Assembly: GCA_052168235.1 (NCBI GenBank) | Contig: JBQLZK010000006.1 | Location: 64,001 to 128,000, forward strand | Direction of reading: 5' to 3' | DNA length: 64,000 bases | DNA from: Thainema sp. | Lineage (GTDB): Bacteria; Cyanobacteriota; Cyanobacteriia; Phormidesmidales; Phormidesmidaceae | Shown here: positions 1,585 to 19,251 of the stretch, in pieces | How positions within the stretch are numbered: the first letter of the stretch is position 1 | Layout: every line of letters starts with the position of its first letter | Made by a program: the position numbers and the translations under genes | The notes under the pieces: generated by a model | What the model saw: the letters and a program-made list of their open reading frames with translations, nothing else | The model's database searches: none | What the model was told of the DNA's origin: nothing

Positions 1585-1778
1585 GTGCGGTAGTGTGATG
1601 AGCAATGATTGATTCGTAGCGAACGGGGCGCAGGTTTTCCTCTTTCAGGAGATAGAACTGGCAGGTGAACGCAGCAACACAGCCGCTAGATAGCTATTTC
1701 CCAAGATGCCGGAGAGGACGGCATGATGGAGAAAGGGGCAAACAAATTGCCTACAAAAGTTGACGTTGTCAGAGAACG

Positions 1779-2979: not shown

Positions 2980-5865
2980 TTAGAAGGTAAACTGCAAACC
3001 ACCAGAGACAAGCGGGCCATCATCATCAGTTAGAACCTCTTCTACGCGTAGGAAGATACCAGGCCCTACAGGATCGCCAGTCCCAACCGTCTCTTGAATG
3101 TGATCGCTGTTTTCGTCATAGATGAACTGGTTGAGAGCCACCTGTACCGGATTGCCGTTCACATCTTCAATCAACGTGAACATCGCATCGCCATTCTCAT
3201 CAAGCTGGGGCGCTGTCTTATAAATGGGAAAGAGGTTGCCGTCTGCATCATATCCATAAGCAGGACGCTGTTGCTCACCAAAGGGATTCACAACCAGCTC
3301 GGCGCGTAAACCGACGTCGCCACCATCACTCTGTTGACCAAGAACGACCCCTCTGGCAAAGAGTTCAGCCCGTATTGTATTGGCCGCAGCAGTCCAAGGG
3401 GTGTTACCAAAGTTGAGGACATAGCCAAGCGCCAGTTCTCCCACCAGGGGTGAAAAATTGGGATACGTGTCAGTGCTCGCTTCAGCTTGGCGATTCACTA
3501 GCACCGGATCTCCAACCGTGCTAGTCGATTGAGCATCAATCGTGGAGTCATACAAGAACTCAGTACCATGCAGGATTTCAGTACTATGCTCCTGTGATCT
3601 GTCGGTTACAACTTCTTCAAAGACTTGTTCAGGGTCTAAGGTCACTTTCAAATTAGACAGTATGCCGTCAGAATTAACATCGAAGCTCGCAATTCCCTCT
3701 TGCTGGGTCGTTGTAAAGGTGGTTTCTGTGGTTTCGGTCGTGATGGTATCAACCTGAGTAACCGGGGTATGGAAGGTATCGGTTGTGATCGTCCGAGTCA
3801 GGGTTTCGACTTGTGCTTCATAAAACGATGTGGTTGTCGTAATCACATCTTCCTGATTGCCCAAGCCCAGCGTCAGAGAACCCCGCGCATACAGTCCTCC
3901 CGCTACAGTCGTGGCATAGTAACCTGATTGTCCAGGAGCACCCGGAATCAACTCGTCTGGGGTAGAGAGAATAGTGCCAACTCGCGCATCAGCGTCGCCA
4001 GGGTTTCTATTGTCTACGGTTGCAACAGGGTCGCCACCCGGAGTCTGGACATAGCTGCCTTGAATGCCATTGAAATTGTTGGTAACGGCATTATTGCTTG
4101 GCAGCGTATCTTCTACGGCATAGACTTTGGTTGTTTCGGGCACAAAGTTGCCAGGATGATGAGCGGCAGAAATGACTCGGAATCCACCATCTGCAATTAA
4201 ATAGCCTGCTGCTTTATCTAGATTGACGGCATAAGTCTGATTCAACTGCAGCGCTTGGCCATCCTGTTGGGGAACGAGCGCATAGATCACACGCTGAGCT
4301 TGACCCGCTTCGATGGTTAGGGCATTTGTTACATAACCATCCTGATTCCATTGCGGCATAAATTCAATCCGGCCATCGCTCCATTCAATAATCAGGCCGC
4401 CCACGTTGTCGGCATAGGCAGAATCTCCCCGGCCCACTAAGTTTGGATTCGGAGGGGCAATGATGACATCTTTGTCTGTGGGCAGCTCCAACACGCCGTT
4501 GATAGGCGACAGTTGCTCACCCGGAACTACTTCATCGGGTATAGCAGGTACATAGCCAACGATGCGAGTATTGTGGTTGAGCCCAGTTGGCTGCAGCAAG
4601 CGAGGGCCATCTGGATCAGGATTGACAATGGGATTGCCATACATGTCGATCGCATCCTGATGGGTAGAGTTGAAAAACTGTGTGAGGCCGACGCTCATAA
4701 CTAAACCAGCCTGATTGTTGCCAGCCGAGGGGTTAACGCTGACAGAGCCTGTGAGCAACGTAGGAGCTGCATCCGGATTGTCATTGAGGGGAGCCAACTG
4801 ACCTGTCAGGCTGGCCCCATCGGTTCCGAGCCGAAGTTGGGCAGCGGCAGAATACTGACTGTAGATCAGCTGCTCGTCTTCGGGTGTCCTAACGCCTGCG
4901 GCATGGAATAGCGTATTCGAGTTTGTTGTAGATAGCTCTATTTCTCCATAATCACGGCTTTCCTCAACCTCAGTGAATTGCTGTGTCGAAACCGCTGTCG
5001 TTTCATCGACGGTTTGCTCTTGCCGAACGAATGGGTTAAGCGTCGTTTCGATGACTTCAGTGTAGTAGCTAATCCTGCTACTAATCTCTTGCGTCTTCTT
5101 GATGATGTGAGCTTCACCATCACCTTCTGGAAACAGAAGATAATCGCCATCGTTAAAGTCGTGGTCAAATCCATCTTCGACAGCCAAATCCCCATCATTC
5201 ACGATGTAGATGGCAGATTCATGTTCAGTGGATTGTCCACCATTCTTCCCTGGTCTTAAGTTGAGCACGCGCAGTTCGACTGTATCTTCTGCACCGTAAA
5301 CCGCGTCAACATGAGCGTTCTGGGGCAAGGATTGACCATTTGGATCAATTCGAACGCGATCGCCGCTGACAAAAACCTTTTCAGAACTCTGCAAGGTGCC
5401 ATCGGGACGATACACGTTAACTTCAATGCCTTCACCATAATGATGGTTGCCTGCACTGTGCTGAATAGCGAACCGGGTTCTCATTCGTAGAGTTTCAGTT
5501 TGCAGTTCAAAGCCAGGTGCAACCTGCTGTAATTCCTCATTAACTTGCTCATTAATATTGTCAGTATCGGCTTGAATTTCAATGCTATTAGGAGCCAATT
5601 GGCCTTCAATAACAGATTGATTATGCCGTTCTTGAATATTAAAAATTGGTTCTTGAGGCAAAGGAATGCCAGAGGAATTCCTATCAGAACCTGTGATGAT
5701 ATCAAAAGCGTTTCGATTAACTTGAATTGAACCATCCTGATTGACAAATACATTAGAAGTGGTTTGAGCATTAACGGCTTGAGGGCAGTTGATTCCTATT
5801 GAAATAAGCAATAAAGTTGAAAAGGTGTAAGCAGCTTTTTGGGAGATGAGGGCGATTCTTTTCAT
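2980..5865 (-). CDS. Large secreted hypothetical protein (961 aa), possible outer-membrane protein
   Basis: Long ORF with a Sec-type signal peptide ending AVNA|Q, Thr-rich beta-like segments, and C-terminal GGLQFTF resembling a beta-signal. Confidence 0.75.
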   Translation of the reverse strand: MKRIALISQKAAYTFSTLLLISIGINCPQAVNAQTTSNVFVNQDGSIQVNRNAFDIITGSDRNSSGIPLPQEPIFNIQERHNQSVIEGQLAPNSIEIQADTDNINEQVNEELQQVAPGFELQTETLRMRTRFAIQHSAGNHHYGEGIEVNVYRPDGTLQSSEKVFVSGDRVRIDPNGQSLPQNAHVDAVYGAEDTVELRVLNLRPGKNGGQSTEHESAIYIVNDGDLAVEDGFDHDFNDGDYLLFPEGDGEAHIIKKTQEISSRISYYTEVIETTLNPFVRQEQTVDETTAVSTQQFTEVEESRDYGEIELSTTNSNTLFHAAGVRTPEDEQLIYSQYSAAAQLRLGTDGASLTGQLAPLNDNPDAAPTLLTGSVSVNPSAGNNQAGLVMSVGLTQFFNSTHQDAIDMYGNPIVNPDPDGPRLLQPTGLNHNTRIVGYVPAIPDEVVPGEQLSPINGVLELPTDKDVIIAPPNPNLVGRGDSAYADNVGGLIIEWSDGRIEFMPQWNQDGYVTNALTIEAGQAQRVIYALVPQQDGQALQLNQTYAVNLDKAAGYLIADGGFRVISAAHHPGNFVPETTKVYAVEDTLPSNNAVTNNFNGIQGSYVQTPGGDPVATVDNRNPGDADARVGTILSTPDELIPGAPGQSGYYATTVAGGLYARGSLTLGLGNQEDVITTTTSFYEAQVETLTRTITTDTFHTPVTQVDTITTETTETTFTTTQQEGIASFDVNSDGILSNLKVTLDPEQVFEEVVTDRSQEHSTEILHGTEFLYDSTIDAQSTSTVGDPVLVNRQAEASTDTYPNFSPLVGELALGYVLNFGNTPWTAAANTIRAELFARGVVLGQQSDGGDVGLRAELVVNPFGEQQRPAYGYDADGNLFPIYKTAPQLDENGDAMFTLIEDVNGNPVQVALNQFIYDENSDHIQETVGTGDPVGPGIFLRVEEVLTDDDGPLVSGGLQFTF

Positions 5866-6494
5866 GGCTGAAATCTGTCAATTACATGGTGTTTGGGGGG
5901 CAAGCGCAACTGAGTTTATATCTCGTTGATTGTTGCTTAATGAATACTTGATGCTAAATACATCAAGCATTTACATTCTTGTTCCCGACAGATTTATTAC
6001 CCTTTTGAGTGATATTGATCAGCCGCCGTCCTTGAGTTTAAGCGCTGAAAATATAGAGTGATTGATATTGCCTTTTTGTGTGATAGTTGAAGGCAATAGG
6101 TGTGATAGGTTGCTTTTTTGCCTGTGATCAACGTCACAATGCTGCGGAGGCTGCTAAATTGATTTTCTATTTATTTCTAAATGAAATATGTTCGTTAGTG
6201 CTTTATCTGGAGCGATTTAAGATTTCGAGAACTAAAGGTAAGAATGTGTTGGTACTTCATTGAAGCGTTAATCGACAAATGTACGGTGAAATCATCACAG
6301 TGTTTAGGGCAATACTTGACCCTAGAAGAGATTTTTATCTACCCGCAGGCATATCGCAAATCCATTGCTACCAAGCCACGATGCCTTGGCCAAAGCCAAG
6401 CTTGAAACAATAACAATCTGTTATTGAGATTTACTGCTGAAAAGTGCGATCGCAGTTATCGAGCATGTCTCGACTTGGGCTTAAGCTAATATCA

Positions 6495-9326
6495 CTAGTC
6501 GAACTGAGGTGGTACTTCCTGGGGGGACAACTGATCTTCAACTGAGGGGCGAGGTGCATCTAGACCACCAGCACCGCCATTAGCCCCTGCTGCTGCCCCA
6601 TTGGCTCCACCAGCGGCATCTTCTTCGCCACCTACAACGACTGTATCGGGTTCTTCCGGTGTTGGGTCAAAGGTCTCAATCGTCACCGAGCGCACCACCT
6701 GTTCGCCTGCGCTATTGCTTACCTGGAGGCTGACCACGGTGGTGTTTGGCTGAGGACTCAGCGGTAGCGGAATGGCTCCCTGAAGCGGGACAGTGCCGGG
6801 TGCCGGCTGGAGCTGAGCGGTGGTGCCGGGGTTCGGCTCAATCGCCCAAGACAGCACCAAATTGGGTAACGGTCGGCCTTGATCGACTGGAATCACATAT
6901 TTGGTGCGGGCTGTTTCGCCATTTAGTTGAAACTTGAGAATCCGGGGGGGCCGGGGCACGATTTTGACCGGATCGGTCGTGCCAGCAATCGGTTCTTCCG
7001 GCATCCCCGATTTGGGAATCACCGTCAGCTCAAAGATGTAGTTCCCAGCCTGTCGGGCAGCCGTGGGAATGTTGCGGCAGATCAGATTCACTTCCACCAC
7101 GCAAAACGGCTCCAGGATCTCTGGCAGTCCCTCGCGCAGGTCAATCTGGACAGGCGGCAGAACCACTGCTCCTTCAGCGTTTTTGCCCACAATCTGAATG
7201 GCGCGAATTTGCTCCGGTTGGGACAGCGCCCAGTTTAAGCGCACCGTATAAGGATCGGCGGCGGGATTAACGCTGAGCTTTTCGGGGGTAAATGGATTGG
7301 CGTCGTTGGTGGGTCTAGCTGCGGGTGCTTGAGCGTTAGCTGAATTAGTGGTGGTAGTGGTTGCGATCGCAACTGGAGGGGCCGCCGGATAGCTAGGCTG
7401 GGTAGACTCAAACACCAGAATTTCCGGTAGCGGTTCGGGCGTAACTGTTACTACTGGGGTTTGCTGCTGGAGCGGCTGACCGCCTCGCCGACTGGGTTCT
7501 GGAATTAGCGTCAGGACAAAGGTGTAGTTGCCGGCGCGACGCGCATCGGTGCGCAAGTTGCGGCAGGTGAGCAGTTGCGCCTGAATGCTGCAAAATGGCT
7601 CCAGATCTTCAGGTATTTGATTGCCAGCAAACTCATAGGTTAAGGGGCCACTGATCACTGCTCCTTCTGCCGATTGGCCGATGATTTCGAGTGACTGAAT
7701 GCGTTTGGGATAGCTGACCTGAAAGCCAAGCCGCACCGCATCGCCATCGGCGACAGCATATTCGGTATCCTCCGGCGCAAAGCGAACAATTGCAGGGGAC
7801 GGGGGCGGTCGCAGCAGAAACCACCAGATCAGCCAGACAAACGTCGCCAAACCTAAAATCGCTAGCAGAATCAGCGGTAGAATTTGCCACCAGGGTCGGG
7901 ACTCCCAGACGATGTAGCCCTGCATGGGAATATCAGGGAGGGCACGACCATCGGCATCAGTCACCTGGACGCCAAAGTTGAGCAACCGCCCACCACCAAT
8001 TAGCGGGCGCTTCCACTGATTCTTGGGCTGTACATAGATCTCGCTCGTCAAGGTTTGACGCGGCGATAAATGCAGCTCTGACGGTTCCAGCCTGTATTCA
8101 CACTGGTCGCCGCCATCGAGGTGCATGACGGCAATTAGCAGATGACGAGGAATGTTGCCCTGGTTGGTGGCCTGAACGGCAAACAGTCCGGCATTGGTCT
8201 GTACGCGACTGATGAGGGTGCGAAAGCTCAGATCCACCTGGTAAATCGGCTGGATTTCCAAATAGAGCAGATCAAGCAGCGCTAAATCGGGATTATTTTC
8301 CGACAGGAGGCGCAACGTCGCGATGTAGCTGCCAGCCAGAGCTTCAGCAGGAGGGGTGATCATCAGCAGAATGATGCCGCGCGCTCCTGGGTTGAGGTCT
8401 AAATAGTCCTCTGGCAGCGATAGGCCAATATCTTGTGCCCCTTCTGGATAGGTAATGGAAAACCAGTTGGTCGGTAAGTCACTACACCGCAACCGAAATC
8501 GATCAACCCGATCGCCCCGGTTATAGACCATCACCTGAAATTGGAGGACGGTGCCGGGTAATAAGCTGGCGGGCTGAGCGGTGGTTGTGGTGGGCTGGAG
8601 AGCAAAGGTGGGATCGCTGACCTGTATTTCACTTTCGACGGGCGGCAGCACCTGCAAAATCTGGGCGTAGCGCAGCGGCGGATAGTTGGGATAGTGGCGC
8701 GGGGCGTCAACGGTCAGCCAGTAGCGATGGGTATCGGGCAGTGCATCAACGGGGATTTGGAACCGGAAGAGGACTTCGCCGCTTTGACCGGGACTGAGGG
8801 CCAGCCGTTCTTGGGTGGATTCACACCAGGAGTAAAGCGCGGGTGGCAAATCATCGATAAAGATGTCAATAATCGCGCTCTGATTGCCTTTATTCGTAAT
8901 CGTGGCGCTGAGATCGAGGCTGGCACCGGGTGTCACCACATCTTCGCCGGAGGAGTTGAGGATGACAGTGATGGGCTGTTCGGGGGCAGCGTTGGTCGAG
9001 ATAATGCTGCTGCTGGTGTCGCGATTCAGTAGCTCGGCATCGACGTAATATAGGGGATTGCCTGGATCTGAAGAGGTGACGATCTTGACATAGCCCTGCT
9101 GGACGAGATCGTCTAAAACAGTCGGTAATCGAAGATCGGTGTAGTCATCAACTCCCAACGCGGCCTCAATTTGTTGGGCACTTGCTGCTCCCTGCCGCAC
9201 CAGGCACAAGACAACCTGTCGATGAGATTCGGGTAGCGCAAATAGATCAGCAACGCTCATGTCAGTAGAGCGATCCTGGCCGACAGCAGATTGGGAGGGA
9301 TCGGAATCGAATTGGCGTCCGGTCAT
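6495..9326 (-). CDS. CIS-associated single-pass membrane protein with Ig-like (COG1470-like) repeats
   Basis: Last gene of the baseplate operon. Has repeated N-x-G-N/D Ig-like modules, one TM helix (WWQILPLILLAILGLATFVWLIWWFLL) and a duplicated Cys-pair domain. Confidence 0.75.
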   Translation of the reverse strand: MTGRQFDSDPSQSAVGQDRSTDMSVADLFALPESHRQVVLCLVRQGAASAQQIEAALGVDDYTDLRLPTVLDDLVQQGYVKIVTSSDPGNPLYYVDAELLNRDTSSSIISTNAAPEQPITVILNSSGEDVVTPGASLDLSATITNKGNQSAIIDIFIDDLPPALYSWCESTQERLALSPGQSGEVLFRFQIPVDALPDTHRYWLTVDAPRHYPNYPPLRYAQILQVLPPVESEIQVSDPTFALQPTTTTAQPASLLPGTVLQFQVMVYNRGDRVDRFRLRCSDLPTNWFSITYPEGAQDIGLSLPEDYLDLNPGARGIILLMITPPAEALAGSYIATLRLLSENNPDLALLDLLYLEIQPIYQVDLSFRTLISRVQTNAGLFAVQATNQGNIPRHLLIAVMHLDGGDQCEYRLEPSELHLSPRQTLTSEIYVQPKNQWKRPLIGGGRLLNFGVQVTDADGRALPDIPMQGYIVWESRPWWQILPLILLAILGLATFVWLIWWFLLRPPPSPAIVRFAPEDTEYAVADGDAVRLGFQVSYPKRIQSLEIIGQSAEGAVISGPLTYEFAGNQIPEDLEPFCSIQAQLLTCRNLRTDARRAGNYTFVLTLIPEPSRRGGQPLQQQTPVVTVTPEPLPEILVFESTQPSYPAAPPVAIATTTTTNSANAQAPAARPTNDANPFTPEKLSVNPAADPYTVRLNWALSQPEQIRAIQIVGKNAEGAVVLPPVQIDLREGLPEILEPFCVVEVNLICRNIPTAARQAGNYIFELTVIPKSGMPEEPIAGTTDPVKIVPRPPRILKFQLNGETARTKYVIPVDQGRPLPNLVLSWAIEPNPGTTAQLQPAPGTVPLQGAIPLPLSPQPNTTVVSLQVSNSAGEQVVRSVTIETFDPTPEEPDTVVVGGEEDAAGGANGAAAGANGGAGGLDAPRPSVEDQLSPQEVPPQFD

Positions 9327-9500
9327 CTTACAAGCATGGGTACAAGCGGATTGGTGAGTTCAAGTTTCAGGATTTCGATTCAGGTCTTTATTTGTATCAC
9401 ACGGTAGGCAGTGCCTATTGTCCTAGTACATTGAGCTTAAACTAGGTGGGTTAAGCGATCGCAAAACGCGACGTTGGAGTGCTTTTTAGGGGATTAACAC

Positions 9501-9522
9501 GGTGGGCACTGCCCAACCCTAC
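9501..9522 (-). repeat. GTAG-type REP-like element
   Basis: Minus strand reads GTAGGGTTGGGCAGTGCCCACC, directly after the stop of the WD40 gene. Confidence 0.6.
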
Positions 9523-9526
9523 AGAT

Positions 9527-11890
9527 TTATGGACAGCTACTAGATTTGTCAGCACTTGAATACAAATTGACCCGATGATTATCTCCTCCGCTGGTTACTA
9601 ACACTCGATTGGGCAGGCGAATGATATCGACGCTGTTGATTGGTTTACGGGAGCGACCCAGGCGTTTTCCTTTCAGAACCCTACCATCGGCATCCAGTGA
9701 CCACAGCATCACTGTGCCATCTTCGCCGCCACTGGCTAGATAACAGGCATCATCGCTCAGCGCGACCGAACGCACTGCTTGGCCATCATGACCGTCCGAC
9801 CAGCTATCTAAATTCGTACAGCGTCCTTGATTTTCCAGACAGTCGTTGAGATCCCAGAGGGTAATGCGGCCCTGGGTGTCAGCGGTGGCTAGATGACTAG
9901 GCCGACGGGTGGCGCTGGATAGGCTAACGATGTAGTCATTCGCGTCGCCAGCCGGATAGCTGAGTGAGATGGGGTTGGAGCTGGGTTCCGTAGTCTGCCA
10001 GAGTACCAGTCGGTTGAATCGACCTGCGATCGCAAGTGTCTCCTGCTCACTGCCCACCAGCGCAATCGCCTGCACCGCAAAGTTAAGCGACTTTTCAGCG
10101 ACCGACGGCAGGACAACCGGATCAGCCTGATTTGGATTAGCTCGATTGAGCCGATTACCGACACCGAGATCCCACTGCACCACGGCACCGCTGCCGTGGC
10201 CGCTGAATAAGTAGCGGGCATCGGGGCTGAACTGGAGGGCAAACACGCGATCGTCTGCCTGCGGTTCGCCACCGGGACGGAACTGGAGCTCAAATTCCTG
10301 CTGATCGCGCAGCAGATCCCAAATTTCCACCTCGCCGTTTTCAAATCCCAGTGCGATCGCATCATTATTGATGGGCCGATAGCTGGCAACTCGCACCGCC
10401 TTGTCAAACTTAAGTGGATTGCCCAACCTTCGCTTCATCCGGCCAGTTCGTAGCCAGCGCCGCACGGTTTGGTCATCGGAGGCGCTGACTAATTCATTGG
10501 CCTGACCATCGAAGCGCACCGAGTTGACTGGGCCGCGATGCTGGTTGCGCAGCAGTGGCGGGATGAAGAAGAGTCCTACCAGCGCCACCAAGGCCAAAAG
10601 CTGGAGCCAAAACGCCACGTGGGGGCGAGCCGTTAGCGTCAGGGTTTCAGAAACAGGGCGACGCTCAATATTGCTCAGTAAGTTAACGCTGTTTTCCTCG
10701 GCAGGATTGGCCTCTAGCGGATTGGGCGGCAGACTAGCCATCGGCGCAGAAGGGGCAAGCCGGGGATCATTGCTCGCGAGAGAACTAGCGGCTGGAGCAA
10801 ATCGTCCGTCCGGATCGAGATCGGGCGTGACGCGAAACTGATACTGGTGCGGCCAGCCCAGCAGCGGTCGTTTGGCCTGGATGTAAACCTGAGCCGTGCT
10901 GACCGATCCGGGCTTCAAATCAATCCGGGCTGGCATGACTGTGATGCGATCGCGAAAATCGGACGCGGTGCGATCGCGCTTTAGCCAGCGTCGCCAAGCT
11001 GGAATCGGGGGCGGTATAATCCGCAGACTGGCTGGTTGTGCCCAATTGCTTTGGTTGTTGAGCTGAACAGTGTAAATGCCCTGCTGAGTGCGATCGCGGT
11101 TGGCTCTCTCGTCCAGTTCAGCATCAATGGTGATGTCGTCTGATGCCACTGCTGCCGCCGGAATGATGGACTGAATCGGCTCCACATCCAGCTCCATCAC
11201 GCCCCAAGGCTGCACATACAGCGTACCGCCCACCTGCACCGAGGATGAGAGCGACTGGAGCGCCTCCACCTGAAAGGCGTAGGTTTGACTAATCGCTTCC
11301 GTAGAGGCCGGAATCTGGCAGACAAATAGCATACGCGATTCGCTCTGGGGTGGAATTTGCAGCCGTCGTTCGCTGCCCTCCACCAGCCAGTCGCTGGGTA
11401 AGCCCTTCAGCCGCAGCAGCACGTTGCCCATCGTCCGGTTCGGATTCAGCAAGCGCACTGGAATTTCAACGCTGTGTCCCGGTAAGCCGCTGAGCTGGGG
11501 TGCAGCCAGCTCGAGCTGGGGCGGAAACACGCCGCTGCCCTCGATAATCAGCGTGACCACCCGCCGATCTTCTTCACGCAGCTCCAGCGAAAAGACGCGC
11601 ACGGTCAGCGTCATCTTGCCGACGAATCCGCCGGGAACGGGCGGCACGTCCAGAATCGAAATTGAGAACTGGGTGCGATCGCCCGCTGGAATTTTGGCCG
11701 ACAGGTCAGGGGCGAGCCGATACCAGTGATCGGTGGCATTGATATCGACGCCGGAGGCCAGCAGCTCAAGCTGAAAGGTGGCAAACGACGAACTGAGATT
11801 CGACACGGCCACCTCAAACCCCTGCGGCTGGCCCCCTGGCTGAAACCGCAGCGTTTGCGTAGATAAATCAGTAGTGAGCAATTTAGACAT
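9527..11890 (-). CDS. CIS-associated membrane protein: Ig-like N-terminus, TM helix, C-terminal WD40 propeller
   Basis: WD40 signatures (HRGPVNSVRF...SASDDQTVRRW; GHDGQAVRSVAL...SGGEDGTVMLW) and TM segment FWLQLLALVALVGLFFIPPLL. Confidence 0.85.
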   Translation of the reverse strand: MSKLLTTDLSTQTLRFQPGGQPQGFEVAVSNLSSSFATFQLELLASGVDINATDHWYRLAPDLSAKIPAGDRTQFSISILDVPPVPGGFVGKMTLTVRVFSLELREEDRRVVTLIIEGSGVFPPQLELAAPQLSGLPGHSVEIPVRLLNPNRTMGNVLLRLKGLPSDWLVEGSERRLQIPPQSESRMLFVCQIPASTEAISQTYAFQVEALQSLSSSVQVGGTLYVQPWGVMELDVEPIQSIIPAAAVASDDITIDAELDERANRDRTQQGIYTVQLNNQSNWAQPASLRIIPPPIPAWRRWLKRDRTASDFRDRITVMPARIDLKPGSVSTAQVYIQAKRPLLGWPHQYQFRVTPDLDPDGRFAPAASSLASNDPRLAPSAPMASLPPNPLEANPAEENSVNLLSNIERRPVSETLTLTARPHVAFWLQLLALVALVGLFFIPPLLRNQHRGPVNSVRFDGQANELVSASDDQTVRRWLRTGRMKRRLGNPLKFDKAVRVASYRPINNDAIALGFENGEVEIWDLLRDQQEFELQFRPGGEPQADDRVFALQFSPDARYLFSGHGSGAVVQWDLGVGNRLNRANPNQADPVVLPSVAEKSLNFAVQAIALVGSEQETLAIAGRFNRLVLWQTTEPSSNPISLSYPAGDANDYIVSLSSATRRPSHLATADTQGRITLWDLNDCLENQGRCTNLDSWSDGHDGQAVRSVALSDDACYLASGGEDGTVMLWSLDADGRVLKGKRLGRSRKPINSVDIIRLPNRVLVTSGGDNHRVNLYSSADKSSSCP

Positions 11891-11964
11891 GGTTGAAGAC
11901 CAGGTTAAACCTCTGAATGGGTGAGGTGGGTTCGGCTGTGCCGTCTTGAAGAGAATCGCATGGG

Positions 11965-12031
11965 AAACCCCAATTTATTTTTTGTCAGCAGCTTGCTGAG
12001 CAAGCTGCTGACAAAAAATAAATTGGGGTTT
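11965..12031. repeat. Perfect 67-bp palindrome (33-bp arms) centred on GCTGAGC
   Basis: AAACCCCAATTTATTTTTTGTCAGCAGCTTGCT-G-AGCAAGCTGCTGACAAAAAATAAATTGGGGTTT, touching the stop codon of the upstream gene. Confidence 0.95.
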
Positions 12032-13404
12032 TAACTGTTTTGCATCATCATGCGCCGCCGCCAAGCAAAGTGGAGAATATTAATTCCCAATTCTTGAGCA
12101 CCGCGAATTTGGTCGCGGGTCAGGGCCAGATTTTCGTCATAGCCCCAGCCGCTGGATAAGCTGCCGATGACCAGAATAATGCCGCCCCAGTTCAGCACTT
12201 CAATCGTGGTTTGATTCAGCACCGGATAGCGGACAAAGCGGAACGGACGACTGCGTAGTGGATGCTGACCGTTGAGCTGTCCCGTTCCCGAAAGCTGAAT
12301 GCCCACCTGTTCCGCAAAGGTGGTGATGGAACTCACCAATGTCTCAACCTCTTCGGCCACACAAGTGTGAATTTCGCCCAGCTCCGCTACAAATTCGCGC
12401 TCCAGATGGGGCAGCTGAGCCGATTCCGTGCGGATGGCCGCGAGGGCGCTGCGCACGTCATACTGCACCTGCATTAGCTCATCCAAATTGGTTTGATAGG
12501 CAGGTACTTCAATGATCAGTGTGCCGCCGTGCTGAAGATATTGGCCAATCGGTTGCGCTTGGACAGCCGTTAAACCTGCTAGCTGGCTATGGCGCATATA
12601 CAGCAGATCATGGTTGGCGAGGAGCGCTTGGGTGGCGGCGGTCGTCACTTGTCCGGGATTGGTTGGTTCTAATCCGCCAAGGGAGAGCGTTTCCAGCGAT
12701 AGATTGGTCACTGAGCCACCACTCTGCAATGAGGGATAAAGTACCTCTAGCGACTCAAACAACCCCGCAAAATCCAGCTCCGTCTTCCAGGTCTCACTCT
12801 CGTTAGTTTCCAGTTGGGCGACCTTGATTAAACCTTGAGGTCGCGATCGCACAATTTGCCGAAAGCGCAGATCCACCTGATTGGCGGTTGGGAAAAAGCA
12901 GTCTGTTGGCATTTGCAGTTCCACGACACCCGGCTGTAGCTCAATGCGGCACAGCTCCACGTCTAATTCATCCGGTGGCGAATTACGCTCATCCAGCCGG
13001 AATGTTTCTTGCACAACCGTCGTTTCGCTGGTGATTGCCTTTAGCTGATCCGGGTCAACATAGCTGAGGACAAGATAAACCGTAATCGTTGATGAAACTG
13101 GCGTGGCTGCAATCCGATAGGTAACAGGTGACGGCACAACGATCGGATTACCCTTGGCATCAATGGCCATCCCCGGCTGCACTTGAAGCCAACGTCCATC
13201 GCGATACTGGGAGCTGATTTCACTAGGCGCAGGAATCACTTGGACATGCAGGCCGCAGACAATACCGGGCTGGTTCAGCGCCTGAAAATGCAGGTTCTGC
13301 CGCTGCCGATGATAGGCATGGGCCACCTGCCAGCGATCGGCGGTGAGCAGCAGACCGTCGCTAACCTGGAGGCGTTCGAGTGGCTGAATCGGAGGCGTAG
13401 ACAT
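12031..13404 (-). CDS. DUF4159-domain CIS accessory (tail-fibre/crown-like) protein
   Basis: N-terminal LERLQVSDGLLLTADRW...YHRQRQ...PGIVCGL...QPGMAIDAKGNPI resembles CIS fibre-attachment domains. C-terminus YLQHGGTL...LGINILHFA is DUF4159-like. Confidence 0.75.
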   Translation of the reverse strand: MSTPPIQPLERLQVSDGLLLTADRWQVAHAYHRQRQNLHFQALNQPGIVCGLHVQVIPAPSEISSQYRDGRWLQVQPGMAIDAKGNPIVVPSPVTYRIAATPVSSTITVYLVLSYVDPDQLKAITSETTVVQETFRLDERNSPPDELDVELCRIELQPGVVELQMPTDCFFPTANQVDLRFRQIVRSRPQGLIKVAQLETNESETWKTELDFAGLFESLEVLYPSLQSGGSVTNLSLETLSLGGLEPTNPGQVTTAATQALLANHDLLYMRHSQLAGLTAVQAQPIGQYLQHGGTLIIEVPAYQTNLDELMQVQYDVRSALAAIRTESAQLPHLEREFVAELGEIHTCVAEEVETLVSSITTFAEQVGIQLSGTGQLNGQHPLRSRPFRFVRYPVLNQTTIEVLNWGGIILVIGSLSSGWGYDENLALTRDQIRGAQELGINILHFAWRRRMMMQNS

Positions 13405-13555
13405 GATGATGACTGATGGTGTTGTTAAACAAAGGATGATTAAAGTGTTGTCGGATGGGCGTTGTCCACCCGTTCAACCGAGAAGATTGGGGTAGGTTTA
13501 GCGCTAGCGTAACCTAATGACATCATCAAAATGGCTGAAATTAATTGAAATTAAG

Positions 13556-14641
13556 TTAGTTTTCACCTATAGAAAGAACGTTCGTGATGGTCACCACGGG
13601 AGCAGGGAGCCGTTCGACCTGCAAATCGTAGGAGCAAAAGGCGGGTTTTTCTTGCTCAATAATGGAGTGGACTAAGGTTTCATCAATCGGATAGTCTCCT
13701 TCTGGACGTAAACAAATTGAAAAGTGAAAAGGCCGACTGCCGCCCAGGGTGGCATCTTGACCAATGTGGGCGACGCCTAGCACAAAGCCCTGGCTAAAGT
13801 TTTCGGTAATGCTGATGTGTTTGCTCGCCTCATCCCGCAGATGTTCGTCCAGCGGCAAGCCCGTTGCTAAATGCAGGAAAAAGCGCAGACCACGCCGAGT
13901 GCCGCGCCAGCGATAGATTTGCATAGCGTGGCGGATGAGAAACCGTTGGCGCTCTATGGAAATCGGAGCTTGGAACGACCAGCCGACCCAGTGAGACAGA
14001 AAAGGCAAAAAAGCCGTCGGTGCAGTGAGCGGATCAAGATGCGCCCACATGGTTTCCAGGGTGTTCACCGACGGCTCAAACGTTTCCTCAAACAGCTTGA
14101 GAAAACGACCCACAAAATCAATATCGCGGTACAGATCGGGCAGGAAATTCAGGTACAGACTGCGAGGCCGAATGTGAAGCTGAAACGGTCGTGTTTCTCG
14201 CTGGGGCTGTCCCGCTTCTCCATCCCGAAGGGTTAATGTGAGCTGTCCTTGGTAGTCTAACTTGAGCGGCACCTGCTGACCAGAGTAAGACTGCTCAAAA
14301 AAGTCAGTTGTGATCGCAAAATATAGAACCGCATCCAGTTGATGATCCGGCGGCAGTTCTGAGCCTTCAACTCCACCAATCCGGCACCACTCGGCGGGAA
14401 AATCGCCATTCACCTGCAAGTTGATCTGAAGTGGATTCGCCCCGTAGTTCTGCACCTGGACAATCAGTTCGCTTGGCTCCCCTGGACGAATCAGCAAGCT
14501 GAGTGGATGCGCCAGATCTGGCGCTTGGAAAAACGTATCGTCTGCCAGTGCCACCGCCAATTCCGACGATGGCACCGCATCTGGCACCTGCATCGGCGTC
14601 AGCAATAGGCGATAGGTTTGACCAGAGCGAGCTTGTGTCAT
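13556..14641 (-). CDS. Phage tail protein I-like baseplate wedge subunit (CIS)
   Basis: YLNFLPDLY...FVGRFLKLFE...LDPLTAPTAFLPFLSHWVGW...YRWRGTRRGL...IIEQEKPAFC motifs; adjacent to the baseplate J-like gene. Confidence 0.88.
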   Translation of the reverse strand: MTQARSGQTYRLLLTPMQVPDAVPSSELAVALADDTFFQAPDLAHPLSLLIRPGEPSELIVQVQNYGANPLQINLQVNGDFPAEWCRIGGVEGSELPPDHQLDAVLYFAITTDFFEQSYSGQQVPLKLDYQGQLTLTLRDGEAGQPQRETRPFQLHIRPRSLYLNFLPDLYRDIDFVGRFLKLFEETFEPSVNTLETMWAHLDPLTAPTAFLPFLSHWVGWSFQAPISIERQRFLIRHAMQIYRWRGTRRGLRFFLHLATGLPLDEHLRDEASKHISITENFSQGFVLGVAHIGQDATLGGSRPFHFSICLRPEGDYPIDETLVHSIIEQEKPAFCSYDLQVERLPAPVVTITNVLSIGEN

Positions 14642-14662
14642 CCAGGTACCCTTAACTAACCT

Positions 14663-16873
14663 TTAACTAATCAAACTAATGGTGTGGGTTGAGCGCAGCT
14701 GATTGTCGGCCCACGAGCAAATCAGCCCCAAGCTGCCGGGCCGCACGATGTTGTCCGGCGCAGGCGAGCGTCGCCACTGATCCTGATGCCGCCGGAACTC
14801 AAACAGCAGCACGGCTCCCAAATAGCGCACCCCAGCAGTGCCCTGAATCAGAGAAATAATGTCCGAAGGGTAAACAGGTGCCCCAAACGGCCAGCCGTTG
14901 CCGTCTCGTCCCCCCGTCAGCGGATTCAAAAACCGATAGAGCGACACCTGAATCTGCTGCAAAATCGCCTGCTGCGCCTGGGAATTAGCGTATTCTGGAT
15001 CGATACCTACCTCTGTTTGCACCCCTACTCCAACATATTCCGACTCCTTGAGCTGCACCTCAATCCCCAGCAGTCGCCGCTCGTTCAGATACCCCTCAAT
15101 CTGCTGGCGCAACTGCGGCGTCATCAAAAACTGATCGGGCGGAATGCCCACGCCCCGCTCGATCCCCATAATGTTGGTCTGCGGCACCACATAGACATCC
15201 ACCACACCTGGTTTATGACTCTGCTTGGGACAGCGACAGCGAGCCACCGCACCCTGCCCCCCCTGAAGCGTCAGCGCCTCAAAATCCTCTGGTGTCACCG
15301 CGCGATCGCGCGTGCGTAACATCCGGGGCACTCGCAGCACCGCATCTTCCAGCGATTCGGCATCGGCTCCGTTGCGGGCCGGAGTGTGGTTGGTCACTGC
15401 CGACACGTAGGGCACCGCTGACTTGACAATCCGCAGACTGTGGCTCTGGACATTGCCCTTGCGTCCACCGCCCGTCCGGTAGCGAGACATGCGCAGAATG
15501 GCTCCGCGTGGAGGTGCCGCACCATACTGGCGCTCCATCAAAGTTGCGATCGCACTTCCTTGCGCTCTTAAAGACGACATTTGATTCAGCGGCGAGCCTT
15601 GATCCATCTGGGTAATTGCCCGAATCTGAGTCTGCTCCTTCAACTGGCTCGGCTCTCGAATTAGTGGCCCAAACTGCAGTTCTCCCGTTAAGGAATCTAG
15701 CGTATAGTGGCGATCCTCTGGCCCTGAATCAGCAAAATCGTTCACCTCTGCCCAAATCTGTGGCAGCCCGTCCGGTGGCGTCACGATCAGATGTTCCCCC
15801 TCCCGACGCGGCAGAATCGGCGCTCCCTGAATCTGGAACTTCTGCCCCGCCAGTCCGTTACTCTCACCCAGCAGCTCATCCCGAACCACCGTACACTGAC
15901 TGGCATCAATCGTGCCGCCAATCGAGCGCACCGACACCCGCAGCAAGCGCGGCGAACTACTATACCCCGTCTGATTCTGATTTGCTTGCGGCGGCGTATA
16001 CACACAGCGCACCCAGCGGCCCTGATAGGTGGCGAACGATGTGACTGGAAATTGCTGCGGCAGGTGCAGCACCACCTCTGCTTCCTGCACAGGCGTCGTC
16101 CCGTCACCAATCTCATGGAAGCTAAATCCCTTCGTATGGTCATCCGCTTCCCGCAGCAAAATCGGCACCCAGCGTCCCCCGTCCCAGGCCTCCCAGCGGC
16201 GGGGCGGACGGTCGGGATTAATACCCGTGGAGGTGGCCGCTTCCCCGGACAGCGCTAGCGCCAACACATTCCCCTCAATTGGCTGATCGGGATCAAACAC
16301 AATATATAGACAGTTTCCTGGCTGCGGGCGCTCACTGAAAATCATCTGCTCTCGCCCCGACCAGGTGCCATCGGACTGGCGCGACCACAGGTTAGCAAAG
16401 CGATCGCGCAAAATCGTTGGCTGCGTCTCCAGTAGTTCCGACGTCAGCAGGTGATTGATTTCCGGTAGCCCAATCGTCAGTGTTCGCTCGGTGCTGAAGA
16501 TAATTGCCTCTTCGGTTTCCGTCCGCTCGGTGGCAACTTCCACGCCTACCGGAATCTGATACACCGTCGGTAGGCTAGCGGTTAAGTAAAACGTTGCTTC
16601 GGTAAACGCGGGCGCAGGCGGCTGGAGCCGAACCCCCAACAGTTCCAAAAAGCCCACGTAGTTGCGGCGCGGAATCTGGTTGAACCGCATCAGCATCTGG
16701 TCAGTCAACCAGGCAAACAGCTCAATCATTGTTACGCCTGGGTCGCCCGGATTATAGTTTGTCCATTCGGGACAGTACCGGGGAATCCGTAGAATGCACT
16801 CTTCGACCAGGTCTTTAAAGGCGCGGTCGTCGAGGTCGGATTTGGGCAGATTGGGCAGGAAGTCGAAGTCCAT
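14663..16873 (-). CDS. Putative baseplate assembly protein (baseplate J-like, Afp11/Cis11-type)
   Basis: LDDRAFKDLV...PEWTNYNPGDPGVTMIELFAW, YRTGGGRKGNV, GADAESLE, RAVTPEDFE and GWPFG motifs. Confidence 0.92.
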   Translation of the reverse strand: MDFDFLPNLPKSDLDDRAFKDLVEECILRIPRYCPEWTNYNPGDPGVTMIELFAWLTDQMLMRFNQIPRRNYVGFLELLGVRLQPPAPAFTEATFYLTASLPTVYQIPVGVEVATERTETEEAIIFSTERTLTIGLPEINHLLTSELLETQPTILRDRFANLWSRQSDGTWSGREQMIFSERPQPGNCLYIVFDPDQPIEGNVLALALSGEAATSTGINPDRPPRRWEAWDGGRWVPILLREADDHTKGFSFHEIGDGTTPVQEAEVVLHLPQQFPVTSFATYQGRWVRCVYTPPQANQNQTGYSSSPRLLRVSVRSIGGTIDASQCTVVRDELLGESNGLAGQKFQIQGAPILPRREGEHLIVTPPDGLPQIWAEVNDFADSGPEDRHYTLDSLTGELQFGPLIREPSQLKEQTQIRAITQMDQGSPLNQMSSLRAQGSAIATLMERQYGAAPPRGAILRMSRYRTGGGRKGNVQSHSLRIVKSAVPYVSAVTNHTPARNGADAESLEDAVLRVPRMLRTRDRAVTPEDFEALTLQGGQGAVARCRCPKQSHKPGVVDVYVVPQTNIMGIERGVGIPPDQFLMTPQLRQQIEGYLNERRLLGIEVQLKESEYVGVGVQTEVGIDPEYANSQAQQAILQQIQVSLYRFLNPLTGGRDGNGWPFGAPVYPSDIISLIQGTAGVRYLGAVLLFEFRRHQDQWRRSPAPDNIVRPGSLGLICSWADNQLRSTHTISLIS

Positions 16874-16882
16874 GTTGGGTGA

Positions 16883-17078
16883 GGAGTGAGGAGGAAGGCG
16901 AGAGGAGTGGGAGGGTGGATGGGTGAGGGGGTAGATGGGTGGGAGACTAAGGGAGAGGGGGGTAGATGGGTGGGAGGGTAGATGGGTAGGAGTTGTGTAG
17001 GGTGTGTTAGGTGTTAGGCGTTAGCCGTAACGCACCAGGCTTCTTACGCCTCACTCCTCTCGCCTTCCTCCTCACTCC
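16883..17078. repeat. Intergenic cassette: 27-bp perfect inverted repeats enclosing G-tract repeats and a REP-like element
   Basis: GGAGTGAGGAGGAAGGCGAGAGGAGTG (16883-16909) and its exact complement (17052-17078). Repeated GGGTAGATGGGT units and GTAGGGTG...GTAACGCACC (16997-17036) lie inside. Confidence 0.85.
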
Positions 17079-17080
17079 CT

Positions 17081-17497
17081 TCACTCAGGAGACATGAGAT
17101 AAAAGGGGTAAACAATGCTGCGGCGGACAGGGTTGTTTTTGGGGTGGTACTGGATGATGATGTCCACGCGACCGCGTAGCGGATCGGGTTCGGTCGCGAT
17201 TTGGTCGAGGATGATGCGCGGCTCCCATTTTTCGAGGGCTTCTTGGACGTGGAGCCTTACTAGCAGCAGGGTTTCGGTGCTCATGGGCATGAAGGTGAGT
17301 TCGGACAGCCGACAGCCGAAGTCGGGCCGATAAACTCGTTCGCCAATCCGCGTTCGCAGAATAATCTGAATCGATTCTTCGATATTTGTGCGGCCTGCGC
17401 TGAGCTGTAAATCCCCCTGGACGCTAATCCGCATGGGGAAACACCAGCCACGCCCCAGATGGGCATCGGGTTGTGTAGACTCGGCAAAGTTCGGCAT
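17081..17497 (-). CDS. GPW/gp25 family baseplate protein
   Basis: LGRGWCFP...IEESIQIILRTRIGERVYRPDFGC...LEKWEPRI...VYPFYL is the gp25 signature. Confidence 0.95.
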   Translation of the reverse strand: MPNFAESTQPDAHLGRGWCFPMRISVQGDLQLSAGRTNIEESIQIILRTRIGERVYRPDFGCRLSELTFMPMSTETLLLVRLHVQEALEKWEPRIILDQIATEPDPLRGRVDIIIQYHPKNNPVRRSIVYPFYLMSPE

Positions 17498-17623
17498 TGC
17501 TGACGGCCACCTATACCACTGACTGCCGCCAGCTTAGCCATCTGGTTTCTGAGTTCCTATTCGCCAAAAGTCGAATACGGAGGTGAGGGTAATCACCCTT
17601 GGTTGGTGCAAGATGTGAGCATA

Positions 17624-18148
17624 CTAATTTTGAACCGTCTGTTTTTGATAGATGGTCGGAATGGCTATTGTTAGCAACATCATCAGGTTGGCGAGCCAGA
17701 ACAGCACGATGCTGGTAAAGCCAAGCAACTCTAAATGGGAGAGCGAGAGCTGGTTAAAGCCATCAAATAACTGCCACAGTCGAAACGCAGTATAGCAAAA
17801 GCCGATGGGCACGACGACGCTAGCAACGAGCCAGCGGCTGAACGTTGACTCTGAGAGGAGCTGTACGACTACGACTAGAACATAGCTACTCCAGAATGAC
17901 AAAGCGGCAGGTTGCTGCCGAGCTTGAATCCACAAGGCCAGTGGGACTAAAACTCCCAAAACCGACGCCAGCTTGACCCAAGCTTTCAGAAATGCCCCCT
18001 GTTTGTCGTTGAAGCCAATTTCGGCGGAAAAGGGCAGCCGTTGCGTTTTAACGCCGTAGCCATAACCAATGGCGATGCTAGTTGCGATCGCAATAAATAG
18101 CGCTATCACCAGTCCGTTATCTATTATGACTGCCTCCTGATTCAACAT
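17624..18148 (-). CDS. Hypothetical integral membrane protein
   Basis: 174 aa with about five hydrophobic segments. Confidence 0.7.
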   Translation of the reverse strand: MLNQEAVIIDNGLVIALFIAIATSIAIGYGYGVKTQRLPFSAEIGFNDKQGAFLKAWVKLASVLGVLVPLALWIQARQQPAALSFWSSYVLVVVVQLLSESTFSRWLVASVVVPIGFCYTAFRLWQLFDGFNQLSLSHLELLGFTSIVLFWLANLMMLLTIAIPTIYQKQTVQN

Positions 18149-18251
18149 CGATAAAAAAGGAAGTGCGATCGCACTTGCCTCTAATTTCTACTTTGAATGA
18201 TGGAAGCTAGTCTTGGAGCATGAATGAACGAAATCAGCGTTTGATCTTGGG

Positions 18252-18428
18252 ATGCGACTGATTATCCTGAAACACTACATTCGCGCCCACCAAATGGATG
18301 TCACCAACCGCTGGAAGCATTTTCTAGACGATGAACGCTACCGCCAACTCTTCCAGCACCCAAAACTCTGGGACTATTCCGAACGTATCTTCGGGCACTT
18401 TGCCGGAACAGAAGCATTGAAGTTTTAA
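18252..18428 (+). pseudogene. Probable 3' gene remnant (58 codons)
   Basis: Reads MRLIILKHYIRAHQMDVTNRWKHFLDDERYRQLFQHPKLWDYSERIFGHFAGTEALKF*. Protein-like, with an in-frame stop shortly upstream; below the ORF-track cutoff. Confidence 0.35.
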
Positions 18429-18505
18429 GTTCTAGCCATTCAATCGAGAACAGTTGACATTTGCTGTGTCAGCTATATTTGAAACATCCCAATCACTTGT
18501 TTTGA

Positions 18506-18583
18506 ATGCCAACTCTGTTAATAGTCGGCCCCTATCGCTTCTTCTGTTACGCGGGCGACCGTGATGAACTCTTTAACGATTGA
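18506..18583 (+). pseudogene. Truncated DUF4160 family gene (N-terminal remnant)
   Basis: Translates MPTLLIVGPYRFFCYAGDRDE-LFND*, matching the recalled DUF4160 N-terminus (MPT...GPYRFFFY..DRDEPxHIHV). It sits directly before DUF2442, its usual partner. Confidence 0.8.
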
Positions 18584-18872
18584 ACTGCTCGAAATACCTC
18601 AAATTCAAAGCGTGACGATTACAGAGGACACGCTATCTGCCGATTTGTCTGATGGGCGTACGATATCTGTTCCACTAGCATGGTATCCACGTCTTCTGCA
18701 TGGTTCCGTGGAAGAACGCAGCCAATGGCGTTTGATTGGCAACGGTGAAGGCATTCACTGGGCAGAACTCGACGAAGATATCAGCATCAAAAACCTTATT
18801 CTTGAACAACTATCAGGAGAAAGTCAAAAATCATTTCAGCGATGGCTAGAAAATCGCGCAGCAATGACTTAA
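18564..18872 (+). CDS. DUF2442 domain protein (putative antitoxin)
   Basis: LSDGRTISVPLAWYPRLLHGSVEER..W.LIGNGEGIHWAELDEDISI motif. Confidence 0.9.
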   Translation: MNSLTIELLEIPQIQSVTITEDTLSADLSDGRTISVPLAWYPRLLHGSVEERSQWRLIGNGEGIHWAELDEDISIKNLILEQLSGESQKSFQRWLENRAAMT

Positions 18873-18914
18873 TCGTGTTTGAGTAAAAGTATCAGAAATC
18901 AGGAAGCTTGATTT

Positions 18915-19241: not shown

Positions 19242-19251
19242 CAGTAGGGGT

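Follow-up and report, generated by a model that had tools for sequence, protein, structure and literature searches.

A baseplate-wedge operon of Thainema sp. is very probably one of four scattered parts of a complete, Streptomyces-like contractile injection system

We analysed a stretch of 64,000 nucleotides from the cyanobacterium Thainema sp. (assembly GCA_052168235.1, contig JBQLZK010000006.1, positions 64,001 to 128,000 of the forward strand), hereafter the window, in which six co-oriented genes at positions 6495-17497 resemble part of a contractile injection system (CIS). The source genome is labelled G000 and the window is G000:C6:64001-128000, while G001 is a congener, G014 a genome of the same family, and L-numbers denote related loci. 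The proteins of the window were scanned against Pfam and NCBIfam, and transmembrane (TM) segments were sought with a hydrophobicity scan. All six genes are on the minus strand, and the first encodes a gp25-like baseplate wedge protein, Cis9 (17081..17497, 138 aa, Pfam GPW_gp25 at 1.4e-21). This is followed by the Baseplate-J-like wedge protein Cis11 (14663..16873, 736 aa, Baseplate_J at 7.5e-11 and TIGR02243 'putative baseplate assembly protein' at 1.3e-190) and the gpI-like (TssG-like) wedge protein Cis12 (13556..14641, 361 aa, Tail_P2_I at 5e-6 and TIGR02242 at 2e-35). The fibre position is occupied by p4 (12031..13404, 457 aa), which has a CIS13_fam-like N-terminal part and a C-terminal DUF4159 domain, and the operon ends with two single-pass membrane proteins, p5 (9527..11890, 787 aa, WD40 at 1.9e-20, one TM segment at ~423-449) and p6 (6495..9326, 943 aa, only weak immunoglobulin (Ig)-like matches in Pfam and NCBIfam, one TM segment at ~478-507). 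The hydrophobicity scan found no TM segment in Cis9, Cis11, Cis12 or p4. An earlier reading of this DNA, here called the original prediction, had placed six intact genes of these kinds at these positions with nothing phage-like upstream of gp25, and the list of open reading frames (ORFs) and the family matches bear this out. Upstream of gp25 lie a 174-aa ORF with four TM segments, then DUF2442 and DUF433/DUF5615 genes and a sulfotransferase gene, with no tail-like gene found among them by Pfam, and no sheath, tube, spike or PAAR genes were found in positions 1-24000 of the window, the part examined.

The original prediction interpreted the six genes as a stand-alone baseplate and anchor half, and proposed either that the machine is encoded at two or more loci or that the module had been kept for another job. 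The whole-genome profile search that it recommended favours the first of these, as the rest of the machine was located on three other contigs of the same genome (7.54 Mb in 205 contigs, rated 99.99% complete, with contamination given as 0.5%), and the module is hence not a stand-alone half. There is one genome-wide match to the PF04984 sheath, on C29, with all four gp19 tube matches beside it, one VgrG, on C62, and one PF04965 (gp25) match, which is the Cis9 of the window itself. The Cis11 of the window and the genome's own sheath and VgrG proteins each have one match in the genome. PF05488 (PAAR) was without match genome-wide, and the PAAR-like role is therefore assigned to a DUF4280 protein. 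According to Pfam, the tube/sheath locus (G000:C29:60280-74851) holds a Pvc16_N cap gene, the sheath gene, three tube genes, two unknowns, a fourth tube-like gene, a 2645-aa ORF and a CIS_tube gene (a Cis7-type tube initiator). The spike locus (G000:C62:35456-37850; Pfam, NCBIfam) consists of VgrG and a DUF4280/IglG-like PAAR relative, followed by a pentapeptide-repeat gene. The cap/ATPase locus (G000:C8:130986-139410; Pfam), which was found by mapping the G014 cluster back onto G000, contains a Pvc16_N+TIG cap protein, two small proteins, an AAA+/WHD ATPase and two eCIS_core (DUF4157) proteins. All four loci are surrounded by unrelated genes, and the genome has the full core set of an extracellular contractile injection system (eCIS), each part intact: sheath, tube, tube initiator, VgrG, gp25, Baseplate-J (Afp11), cap (Afp16/Pvc16) and AAA+ ATPase (Afp15). 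These genes are spread over four contigs instead of forming one cluster, and such 'split loci' were counted as eCIS by Chen et al. (2019). We consider it very probable that the six genes form the operon for baseplate wedge and periphery within a single complete CIS of the Streptomyces-like IId lineage, scattered over four loci.

Comparison with relatives, which had also been suggested, ties the four loci together. In G014 (10 contigs) all CIS genes are found in one region of C11, with the cap/ATPase operon divergent from a series running sheath, tubes, giant ORF, Cis7, VgrG, DUF4280, gp25, Cis11, Cis12, p4, WD40 and Ig. The best G000 matches of these genes, at 35-79% identity, are on C8, C29, C62 and C6, in that order, and thus the four G000 loci are consecutive pieces of one ancestral cluster, of which the six genes in the window are the last piece. 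A 561-aa gene inside the G014 cluster had been suspected of encoding the ATPase, but is a CHASE2 protein gene, with the ATPase gene located in the divergent operon. The congener G001 shares the split, and its DNA homology to G000 is limited to window positions 17582..6495, which span the six genes and 85 bp of upstream sequence. Neither flank is shared, with the downstream flank of G001 matching G000 C2:22224-27227 and its upstream flank being a multi-copy repeat, so that the operon has changed its address between the two congeners while staying intact.

With regard to the kind of CIS, the best matches among sequences of solved structures in the PDB are all from the Streptomyces CIS, for Cis11 (9gtp, 2.4e-108), Cis12 (9gtp_E, 2.5e-8), VgrG (9gtr, 1.1e-43) and sheath (8bky, 2.8e-109), the last compared with 3.3e-48 for All3325 of the thylakoid-anchored CIS (tCIS) of Anabaena (7b5h). 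The Streptomyces coelicolor particle, CIS-Sc, is presented in the available text of its report as the first structure of subtype IId (eLife 2025), and the available text of Chen et al. (2019) gives as IId traits a single afp11, a one-piece afp8 combining gp27 and gp5 parts, and a PAAR-type afp10. The Thainema genome likewise has one Cis11, a 662-aa VgrG with Phage_GPD and Phage_base_V domains, and the DUF4280/IglG-like PAAR relative beside VgrG. Among the genomes given there as carrying a IId locus is Calothrix sp. NIES-4101, the chromosome of which has an orthologous locus (L053) with 63% Cis11 and 79% sheath identity. The Thainema system and CIS-Sc also share single-pass membrane protein genes after the wedge genes, which in CIS-Sc, as far as its description was available, is the position of the membrane adaptor CisA. 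They differ in that CIS-Sc is encoded in one cluster and not at four distant loci, that p4, p5 and p6 follow the wedge genes here in place of CisA, that a giant disordered ORF lies here between tube and Cis7, and that the host is a cyanobacterium with thylakoids.

The original prediction had drawn the parallel with the tCIS of Anabaena sp. PCC 7120 (PDB 7b5h/7b5i), and a thylakoid-anchored machine of that type is an unlikely reading, albeit the one that survives best among the alternatives. In its favour, the DNA is from a cyanobacterium, genes for membrane proteins follow the wedge genes, and the available descriptions of the tCIS show a particle that stays in the cell, held at the membrane by proteins encoded in that same position. 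There is also some contact with the tCIS families, as CIS13_fam matches residues 16-147 of p4 at 2e-14 and Foldseek gives 7b5h_AC at E 4e-3. The similarity of sheath, Cis11 and VgrG to the Streptomyces IId particle nevertheless far exceeds that to 7b5h, placing the system in a different lineage by sequence, and the tCIS is encoded in one cluster, all3313-all3327. The tCIS anchors are described, in the text available, as the extension of the Cis12 protein All3315 (residues 610-1100) that contacts the membrane, a TM-bearing Cis13 and a Cis19 crown. Cis12 of Thainema, at 361 aa, lacks an extension of this type and scores only 56 bits (3e-15) with CIS12_fam, far under the cut-off of 860, and p4 has no 19-mer with a Kyte-Doolittle value above 1.6, unlike the tCIS Cis13, and reaches 53.6 bits with CIS13_fam against a cut-off of 370. 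When p4, p6 and the N-terminal part of p5 were compared with PDB sequences, nothing was found below E 0.29 and no 7b5h chain was matched, with no search aimed at Cis19 being made. Thylakoid anchoring by means other than the tCIS anchors is possible.

We next turned to the distribution of the split layout, using Cis11, sheath and VgrG as markers in 40 related genomes. An orthologue of the Cis11 of the window was present in 17 of the 40, and the three markers were in one region in only three of these (G007, G014, G033), and on two or three contigs or places in the other 14. Three separate contigs or places were seen in five genomes (G001, G012, G024, G034, G038), sheath with VgrG and Cis11 elsewhere in another five (G006, G008, G013, G026, G037), VgrG with Cis11 and sheath elsewhere in three (G011, G023, G028), and Cis11 with sheath and VgrG elsewhere in one (G022). 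Most of these relatives are drafts, in which a contig end can mimic a split. However, G038 is a closed single contig from a different family, and has Cis11 at 1.515 Mb, sheath at 4.298 Mb and VgrG at 0.447 Mb; its Cis7 travels with VgrG and not with the sheath, so that its breakpoints differ from those of G000. A Cis11 scan of named genomes gave 79 loci, all cyanobacterial where a taxon is named. VgrG is just upstream of gp25 in 27 of these, a divergent sheath lies within 8 kb in four, no CIS gene is found for at least 5 kb upstream in 24, 20 are too short to tell, and four lack a gp25 hit. Five of the 24 were checked: three have a divergent sheath module 10-14 kb away, one has its markers on three large contigs, and in Leptolyngbya sp. 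PCC 6406 a distance of 1.05 Mb separates the sheath and VgrG from the baseplate operon. Throughout the relatives, gp25 to p6 remain a single block, and intact orthologous ORFs were found in the 79 loci for Cis12 (60), p4 (57), p5 (53) and p6 (38), many of the misses being cut off by the flank. A few CIS genes in relatives are broken, which may reflect sequencing frameshifts or real decay: the sheath of G044 is in two ORFs (C1:3161646-3163324), the VgrG match has one TAG in G012 (C43:74765-76702) and in G037, and the Cis11 stretches of two metagenome-assembled genome loci have stop codons (12 in L050, two in L102). G001, G012 (C9), G023 (C86) and G033 each have a second system of this kind, a more distant copy with 49-56% Cis11 identity, and the G001 copy is in one piece on one contig (C49:10903-40117), beside the scattered first copy.

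This layout has published precedents. With a relaxed screen, Chen et al. (2019) searched for 'split loci', and Table S2, as available to us, lists 13 genomes, of which eight are cyanobacterial and of subtype IId: Acaryochloris marina MBIC11017, Anabaenopsis circularis NIES-21, Gloeomargarita lithophora, four Arthrospira and Nostoc sp. PCC 7107. The text available also points to the subtype iv type VI secretion system (T6SS-iv) of Amoebophilus asiaticus as a CIS whose two-locus encoding has been verified experimentally. These 'split' loci share with the Thainema system the phylum, probably the subtype, and the location of tube-side and Afp11-side genes at disparate places, but are described there as lying at two locations, whereas Thainema has four (three for the particle proper plus the cap/ATPase/cargo operon). 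A shared upstream motif, a linked two-component system and movement of modules between congeners are not described for them in the parts of that paper available. A text search for cyanobacterial contractile injection at 'separate loci' found no paper. According to the original prediction, a missing half found elsewhere, with relatives split in the same way, would make this a tCIS of known type with routine rearrangement, and a missing half of this sort is what was found: the missing parts are on three other contigs, 14 of the 17 relatives with Cis11 have the markers on two or three contigs or places, and Table S2 documents the same in print.

It is very unlikely that the split is an artefact of draft or binned assembly, with pieces that are really adjacent or that come from different organisms. 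This reading draws on the 205 contigs, on the ends of C29 and C62, which come ~5.9 kb past Cis7 and ~6.2 kb before VgrG so that these two could be neighbours, and on a module GC content of 0.562 compared with 0.506 for the contig, 0.50 for the genome and 0.47-0.53 for the other three CIS loci. Yet more than 70 kb of a 168.8-kb contig lies on each side of the module, which has unrelated genes on its flanks, as have the C8 and C29 loci on both sides, and even if the ends of C29 and C62 adjoin, unrelated genes would still lie between Cis7 and VgrG. A mixture of organisms is at odds with the low contamination, the single copy of each part and the similar identities to G014 across the four loci, and the closed genome of G038 displays the same kind of dispersal.

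The scattered operons have a sequence element in common. A palindrome was derived by comparing the upstream regions of four CIS operons, with ATTCGAC-N5-KCGAAT as the strict and TTCGAC-N5-KCKAAT as a looser form, and because two sites had served to define the pattern, the third and fourth are the only ones that count as tests. The copy in the window, ATTCGACTTTTGGCGAAT (17559..17576, minus strand), is 62-79 nt upstream of the gp25 ATG and is a candidate operator; the homology with the congener starts 6 nt upstream of it. The second copy, ATTCGACCTTTGTCGAAT, is located 131-148 nt before vgrG in the C62 operon. A third strict site precedes the likely start codon (ATG) of the cap/ATPase operon on C8 by 57-74 nt, and a one-mismatch copy lies 62-78 nt upstream of the cap/sheath operon on C29. 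Across the 7.54 Mb the strict pattern occurs just three times, each time at the head of a CIS operon. Two other sites with the loose pattern (C37:30344 and C49:42052) are inside long ORFs and were taken as chance or coding matches, although the C49:42052 sequence recurs in four other genomes. The motif also heads gp25, vgrG or cap operons of G001, G012, G034 and G038, and in an alignment of seven upstream regions it is the sole long invariant block, followed ~22 nt later by a TAnnnT-like element. A search of 1.38 Mb of related loci with TTCGAC-N5-[GT]C[GC]AA gave 11 sites, all 59-81 nt upstream of gp25. The original prediction had supposed that the split would allow separate regulation of the docking module; the same rare palindrome at the heads of the gp25, vgrG and cap/ATPase operons, with the one-mismatch copy at the sheath operon, points instead to co-regulation, and we conclude from these sequences that the scattered operons are probably co-regulated via this element. 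A candidate for its control lies nearby: a GerE-type response regulator (C29:57149-57826) and a histidine kinase are encoded divergently from the cap/sheath operon on C29, with the motif in the intergenic region between. A Cache-HAMP kinase (C8:139439-141685) is encoded directly upstream of the cap/ATPase operon. Orthologues of the regulator gave 17 hits in 15 other genomes, 10 of the 17 within 4 kb of a sheath gene and seven unlinked or untestable, and G014 has neither the motif nor a regulator orthologue at E 1e-40 or better. The available text of Vladimirov (2023) describes four co-timed promoters and a putative regulator in the CIS region of S. coelicolor.

The common motif also bears on the second possibility raised in the original prediction, that of a baseplate module with another job, e.g. 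as a membrane-bound platform or adhesin complex that would need neither sheath nor tube. In favour of this, the module stands apart from the other CIS loci, is preceded by an upstream region of its own and travelled as one block between two congeners, and p4, p5 and p6 have no counterpart in solved CIS particles by sequence. We nevertheless regard an independent function as highly improbable: the motif links the module with the operons for vgrG, cap/ATPase and sheath, every partner required by the wedge proteins is present in exactly one intact copy, and the same six genes form the 3' end of one-piece clusters in G014 and 27 named loci. The 24 genomes with a Cis11 match are all among the 25 with a sheath match, save for a weak match in G040, and among the genomes surveyed none was seen with the module and without a sheath. 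Purifying selection is strong as well, with dN/dS ratios (nonsynonymous to synonymous substitution) against G001 of 0.087 for gp25, 0.027 for Cis11, 0.068 for Cis12, 0.081 for p4, 0.117 for p5 and 0.051 for p6, at dS values of 0.22-0.48. That rearrangement broke up a CIS and left the module as a decaying relic, as might be read from the fragmented cluster and the insertion sequence-like repeats flanking the module in the congener, is the least probable of all, since the six ORFs and all partner genes are intact with no internal stops (the original prediction had already argued from intact ORFs against simple decay), dN/dS is as low as 0.03-0.12 against a congener that shares the split, and the same dispersal with intact genes is found in a different family (G038).

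The last three proteins of the operon are the least familiar part of the system, and for p4 an AlphaFold model was built from 29 orthologues (pLDDT 89.4, pTM 0.87). In this model, and according to VIA-align and Foldseek, residues ~6-187 resemble the shoulder domain of TssK and receptor-binding proteins (RBPs). The VIA-align matches are to the phi812 baseplate protein 9euj_G (Z 10.4, 106 residues aligned, root-mean-square deviation 2.4), the phage 1358 RBP (4l92, Z 8.7), a cyanophage fibre (Z 7.8) and TssK (Z 6.8-7.2, with 5y0e_B at Z 7.2), and Foldseek gives TssK with a probability of 0.95-1.0. Residues ~190-457 form the DUF4159 domain, which is class-I glutamine amidotransferase-like and matches the DUF4159-type structure 4i66 (Z 14.6 over 185/200 residues) as well as ThuA/GATase1-like folds; with Pfam, DUF4159 scores 25.7 bits (9e-6) on the whole protein, just under the gathering cut-off of 25.9, and 27.7 bits, over the cut-off, on the C-terminal part alone. 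The p4 gene, with its shoulder fold at the N-terminus, directly follows the Tail_P2_I gene, although a shared fold is not the same as shared binding. In the available text of a 2026 catalogue, eBAP3 fibres are described as resembling TssK, adjoining TssG-like Tail_P2_I genes and occurring mainly in Bacillota and Actinobacteriota. The shoulder fold of p4 and the preceding Tail_P2_I gene repeat this pairing as it is described there, but the head of p4 is DUF4159/GATase1-like, unlike a fibre or the TssK head, and the Z scores with TssK are middling.

The two membrane proteins are weakly alike before their TM segments (E 5e-4). The N-terminal ~420 aa of p5 are Ig-like (FixG_C-like Ig, 5.5e-4) and precede the TM segment, and its C-terminal part is a WD40 propeller. 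For p6, a model of residues 1-520 (pLDDT 82.3) has a winged helix at ~25-95 and three Ig-like sandwiches at ~119-474 before the TM segment, and the C-terminal part beyond it consists of repeats and a low-complexity tail. For the winged helix the matches are MecI (Z 9.5), RosR (Z 9.2) and MarR (Z 8.9-9.1), and the Ig domains give Z 10-12, while in Pfam the N-terminus has weak TrmB/MarR hits (E 0.02-0.08); the winged helix is present in ~15 of 25 orthologues, and in the ESM Atlas p6 found only its own cyanobacterial COG1470/NPCBM_assoc clusters. The winged helix was considered as the reader of the palindrome, but this fits poorly, with L063 having the motif without the extension, and L037 and L040 the extension without the motif. 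Neither p5 nor p6 has a signal peptide, and as p6 moreover starts with a domain of cytoplasmic type, the N-terminal halves of both are predicted to be cytoplasmic, facing the baseplate. By analogy with CisA, for which the available text gives a cytoplasmic N-terminal half, a C-terminal half beyond the membrane and a requirement in firing, the WD40 or repeat parts at the C-termini of p5 and p6 would lie beyond the membrane. Between p4 and p5, at least 17 related loci have an extra gene (L090, L093, L095, L099, L102, L074, L088, L059, L049, L046, L100, L103, L070, L066, L053, L071 and L018), the product of which resembles the Cache sensor part of the C8:139439-141685 histidine kinase with 23-32% identity over ~450 aa. 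A literature search found no paper tying DUF4159, or WD40 with a baseplate in cyanobacteria, to contractile injection.

For the machine as a whole, we propose that Cis9 would link the first sheath ring to the Cis11 and Cis12 wedges, as it does in the solved Streptomyces particle, and that p4 would dock on the wedge via its TssK/RBP-shoulder-like N-terminal domain, where other systems carry a fibre. From the membrane, either cytoplasmic or thylakoid, p5 and p6 would face the baseplate much as CisA or the tCIS anchors do, and the common palindrome would allow co-regulation of the scattered operons, possibly by the GerE-type response regulator beside the sheath operon.

Several observations, together with the contig ends and the GC content discussed above, weigh against this proposal or some part of it. 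The assignment to the Streptomyces-like eCIS subtype IId lineage is probable, and depends on traits and best matches in place of a tree, and the role of p4, p5 and p6 as membrane anchor is likewise a probable one, derived from gene position, modelled folds and guesses at topology. As to the palindrome, the 11 sites upstream of gp25 in related loci occur in 11 of the 47 loci without VgrG upstream and in none of the 27 colinear loci. No copy of the motif was found in the CIS promoter regions of G014, G007 and G033, the genomes with one-region clusters, and in 22 other detached loci there was no match at up to two mismatches, with a single locus (1/22) having a three-mismatch resemblance, which makes the motif a feature of a sub-clade. 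In addition, five genomes with a sheath-linked regulator (G008, G013, G023, G024 and G028) do not have the strict motif at their CIS loci, and this keeps the connection between regulator and motif hypothetical. Three metatranscriptome runs compared with window positions 5800-18700 gave only 18-60 nt pieces of unrelated contigs and are silent on expression, and none of the 23 sequencing runs listed for the window covers half of the stretch, with one DNA run (X1) having pieces of it at 99% or more.

Other features of these loci should be mentioned. The 2645-aa ORF on C29 (66385-74322, plus strand), between the last tube-like gene and Cis7, looks disordered, with 17% Ser, 12% Gln and many short IQR/VQAK-like motifs, and has no Pfam or NCBIfam match. 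In relatives the ORF at this position, which is that of a tape measure, has an enormous range of lengths, from 156 to 2645 aa. Of the 15 named loci examined, 10 conserve a C-terminal motif (LE.LA.E.Y...QRL.IE.ER.G..Y.GRLPW-like), as does G014, and of the remaining five loci three have an unrelated ORF and two have none. Just beyond the Cis7 end of the C29 locus are Fic and Phd/YefM genes. On C8 (130986-135398, minus strand), the two eCIS_core (DUF4157) proteins that follow the ATPase gene are paralogues of 673 and 737 aa, and are likely cargo or effector candidates.

In the window itself, the 174-aa ORF (17624-18148, minus strand) has four hydrophobic segments and no family, and lies 126 bp upstream of gp25 on the same strand, but neither the congener nor the 79 related loci conserve it at this position. 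Small toxin-antitoxin-type genes (DUF2442, and DUF433 with DUF5615; 18561-19602, plus strand) adjoin the upstream edge of the module. On its other side, a 961-aa protein with an N-terminal signal-like segment and no family is encoded at 2980-5865 (minus strand) and is not conserved downstream of the module in relatives, and its gene is adjoined by that of a 411-aa protein with seven WG_beta_rep repeats (370-1605, minus strand). A consensus scan for promoters and terminators was uninformative, giving four promoter-like sites with 8.5 expected and 11 terminator-like sites with 12.7 expected.

The split IId layout in cyanobacteria was already catalogued in 2019, and in this respect the Thainema system is an ordinary member of a documented kind. 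The details which merit follow-up are the four-way split, the relocation of an intact operon, the common palindrome, the sheath-linked two-component system, and the TssK-like/DUF4159 adaptor with its two single-pass partners. A more speculative extension, which we consider possible but doubtful, is that this sub-clade IId machine is a true regulon, the four operons being mobile because each carries ATTCGAC-N5-KCGAAT, read by the sheath-linked GerE-type two-component system with Cache-domain sensors, and that the baseplate operon is a T6SS-like docking set, in which the TssK-like adaptor with its DUF4159 head and the two single-pass proteins would fix the particle to the membrane from the cytoplasmic side. 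If true, this would be a third solution to anchoring, distinct from the tCIS anchors and from CisA. Finders of CIS that depend on gene clusters will under-count genomes of this kind or mis-call them as incomplete. In the literature searched there was no experimental study of a cyanobacterial IId system, and p4, p5 and p6 are concrete candidates for the contact between particle and membrane. Finally, the palindrome and the sheath-linked two-component system together provide a testable handle on how the scattered parts of such a machine may be jointly produced.

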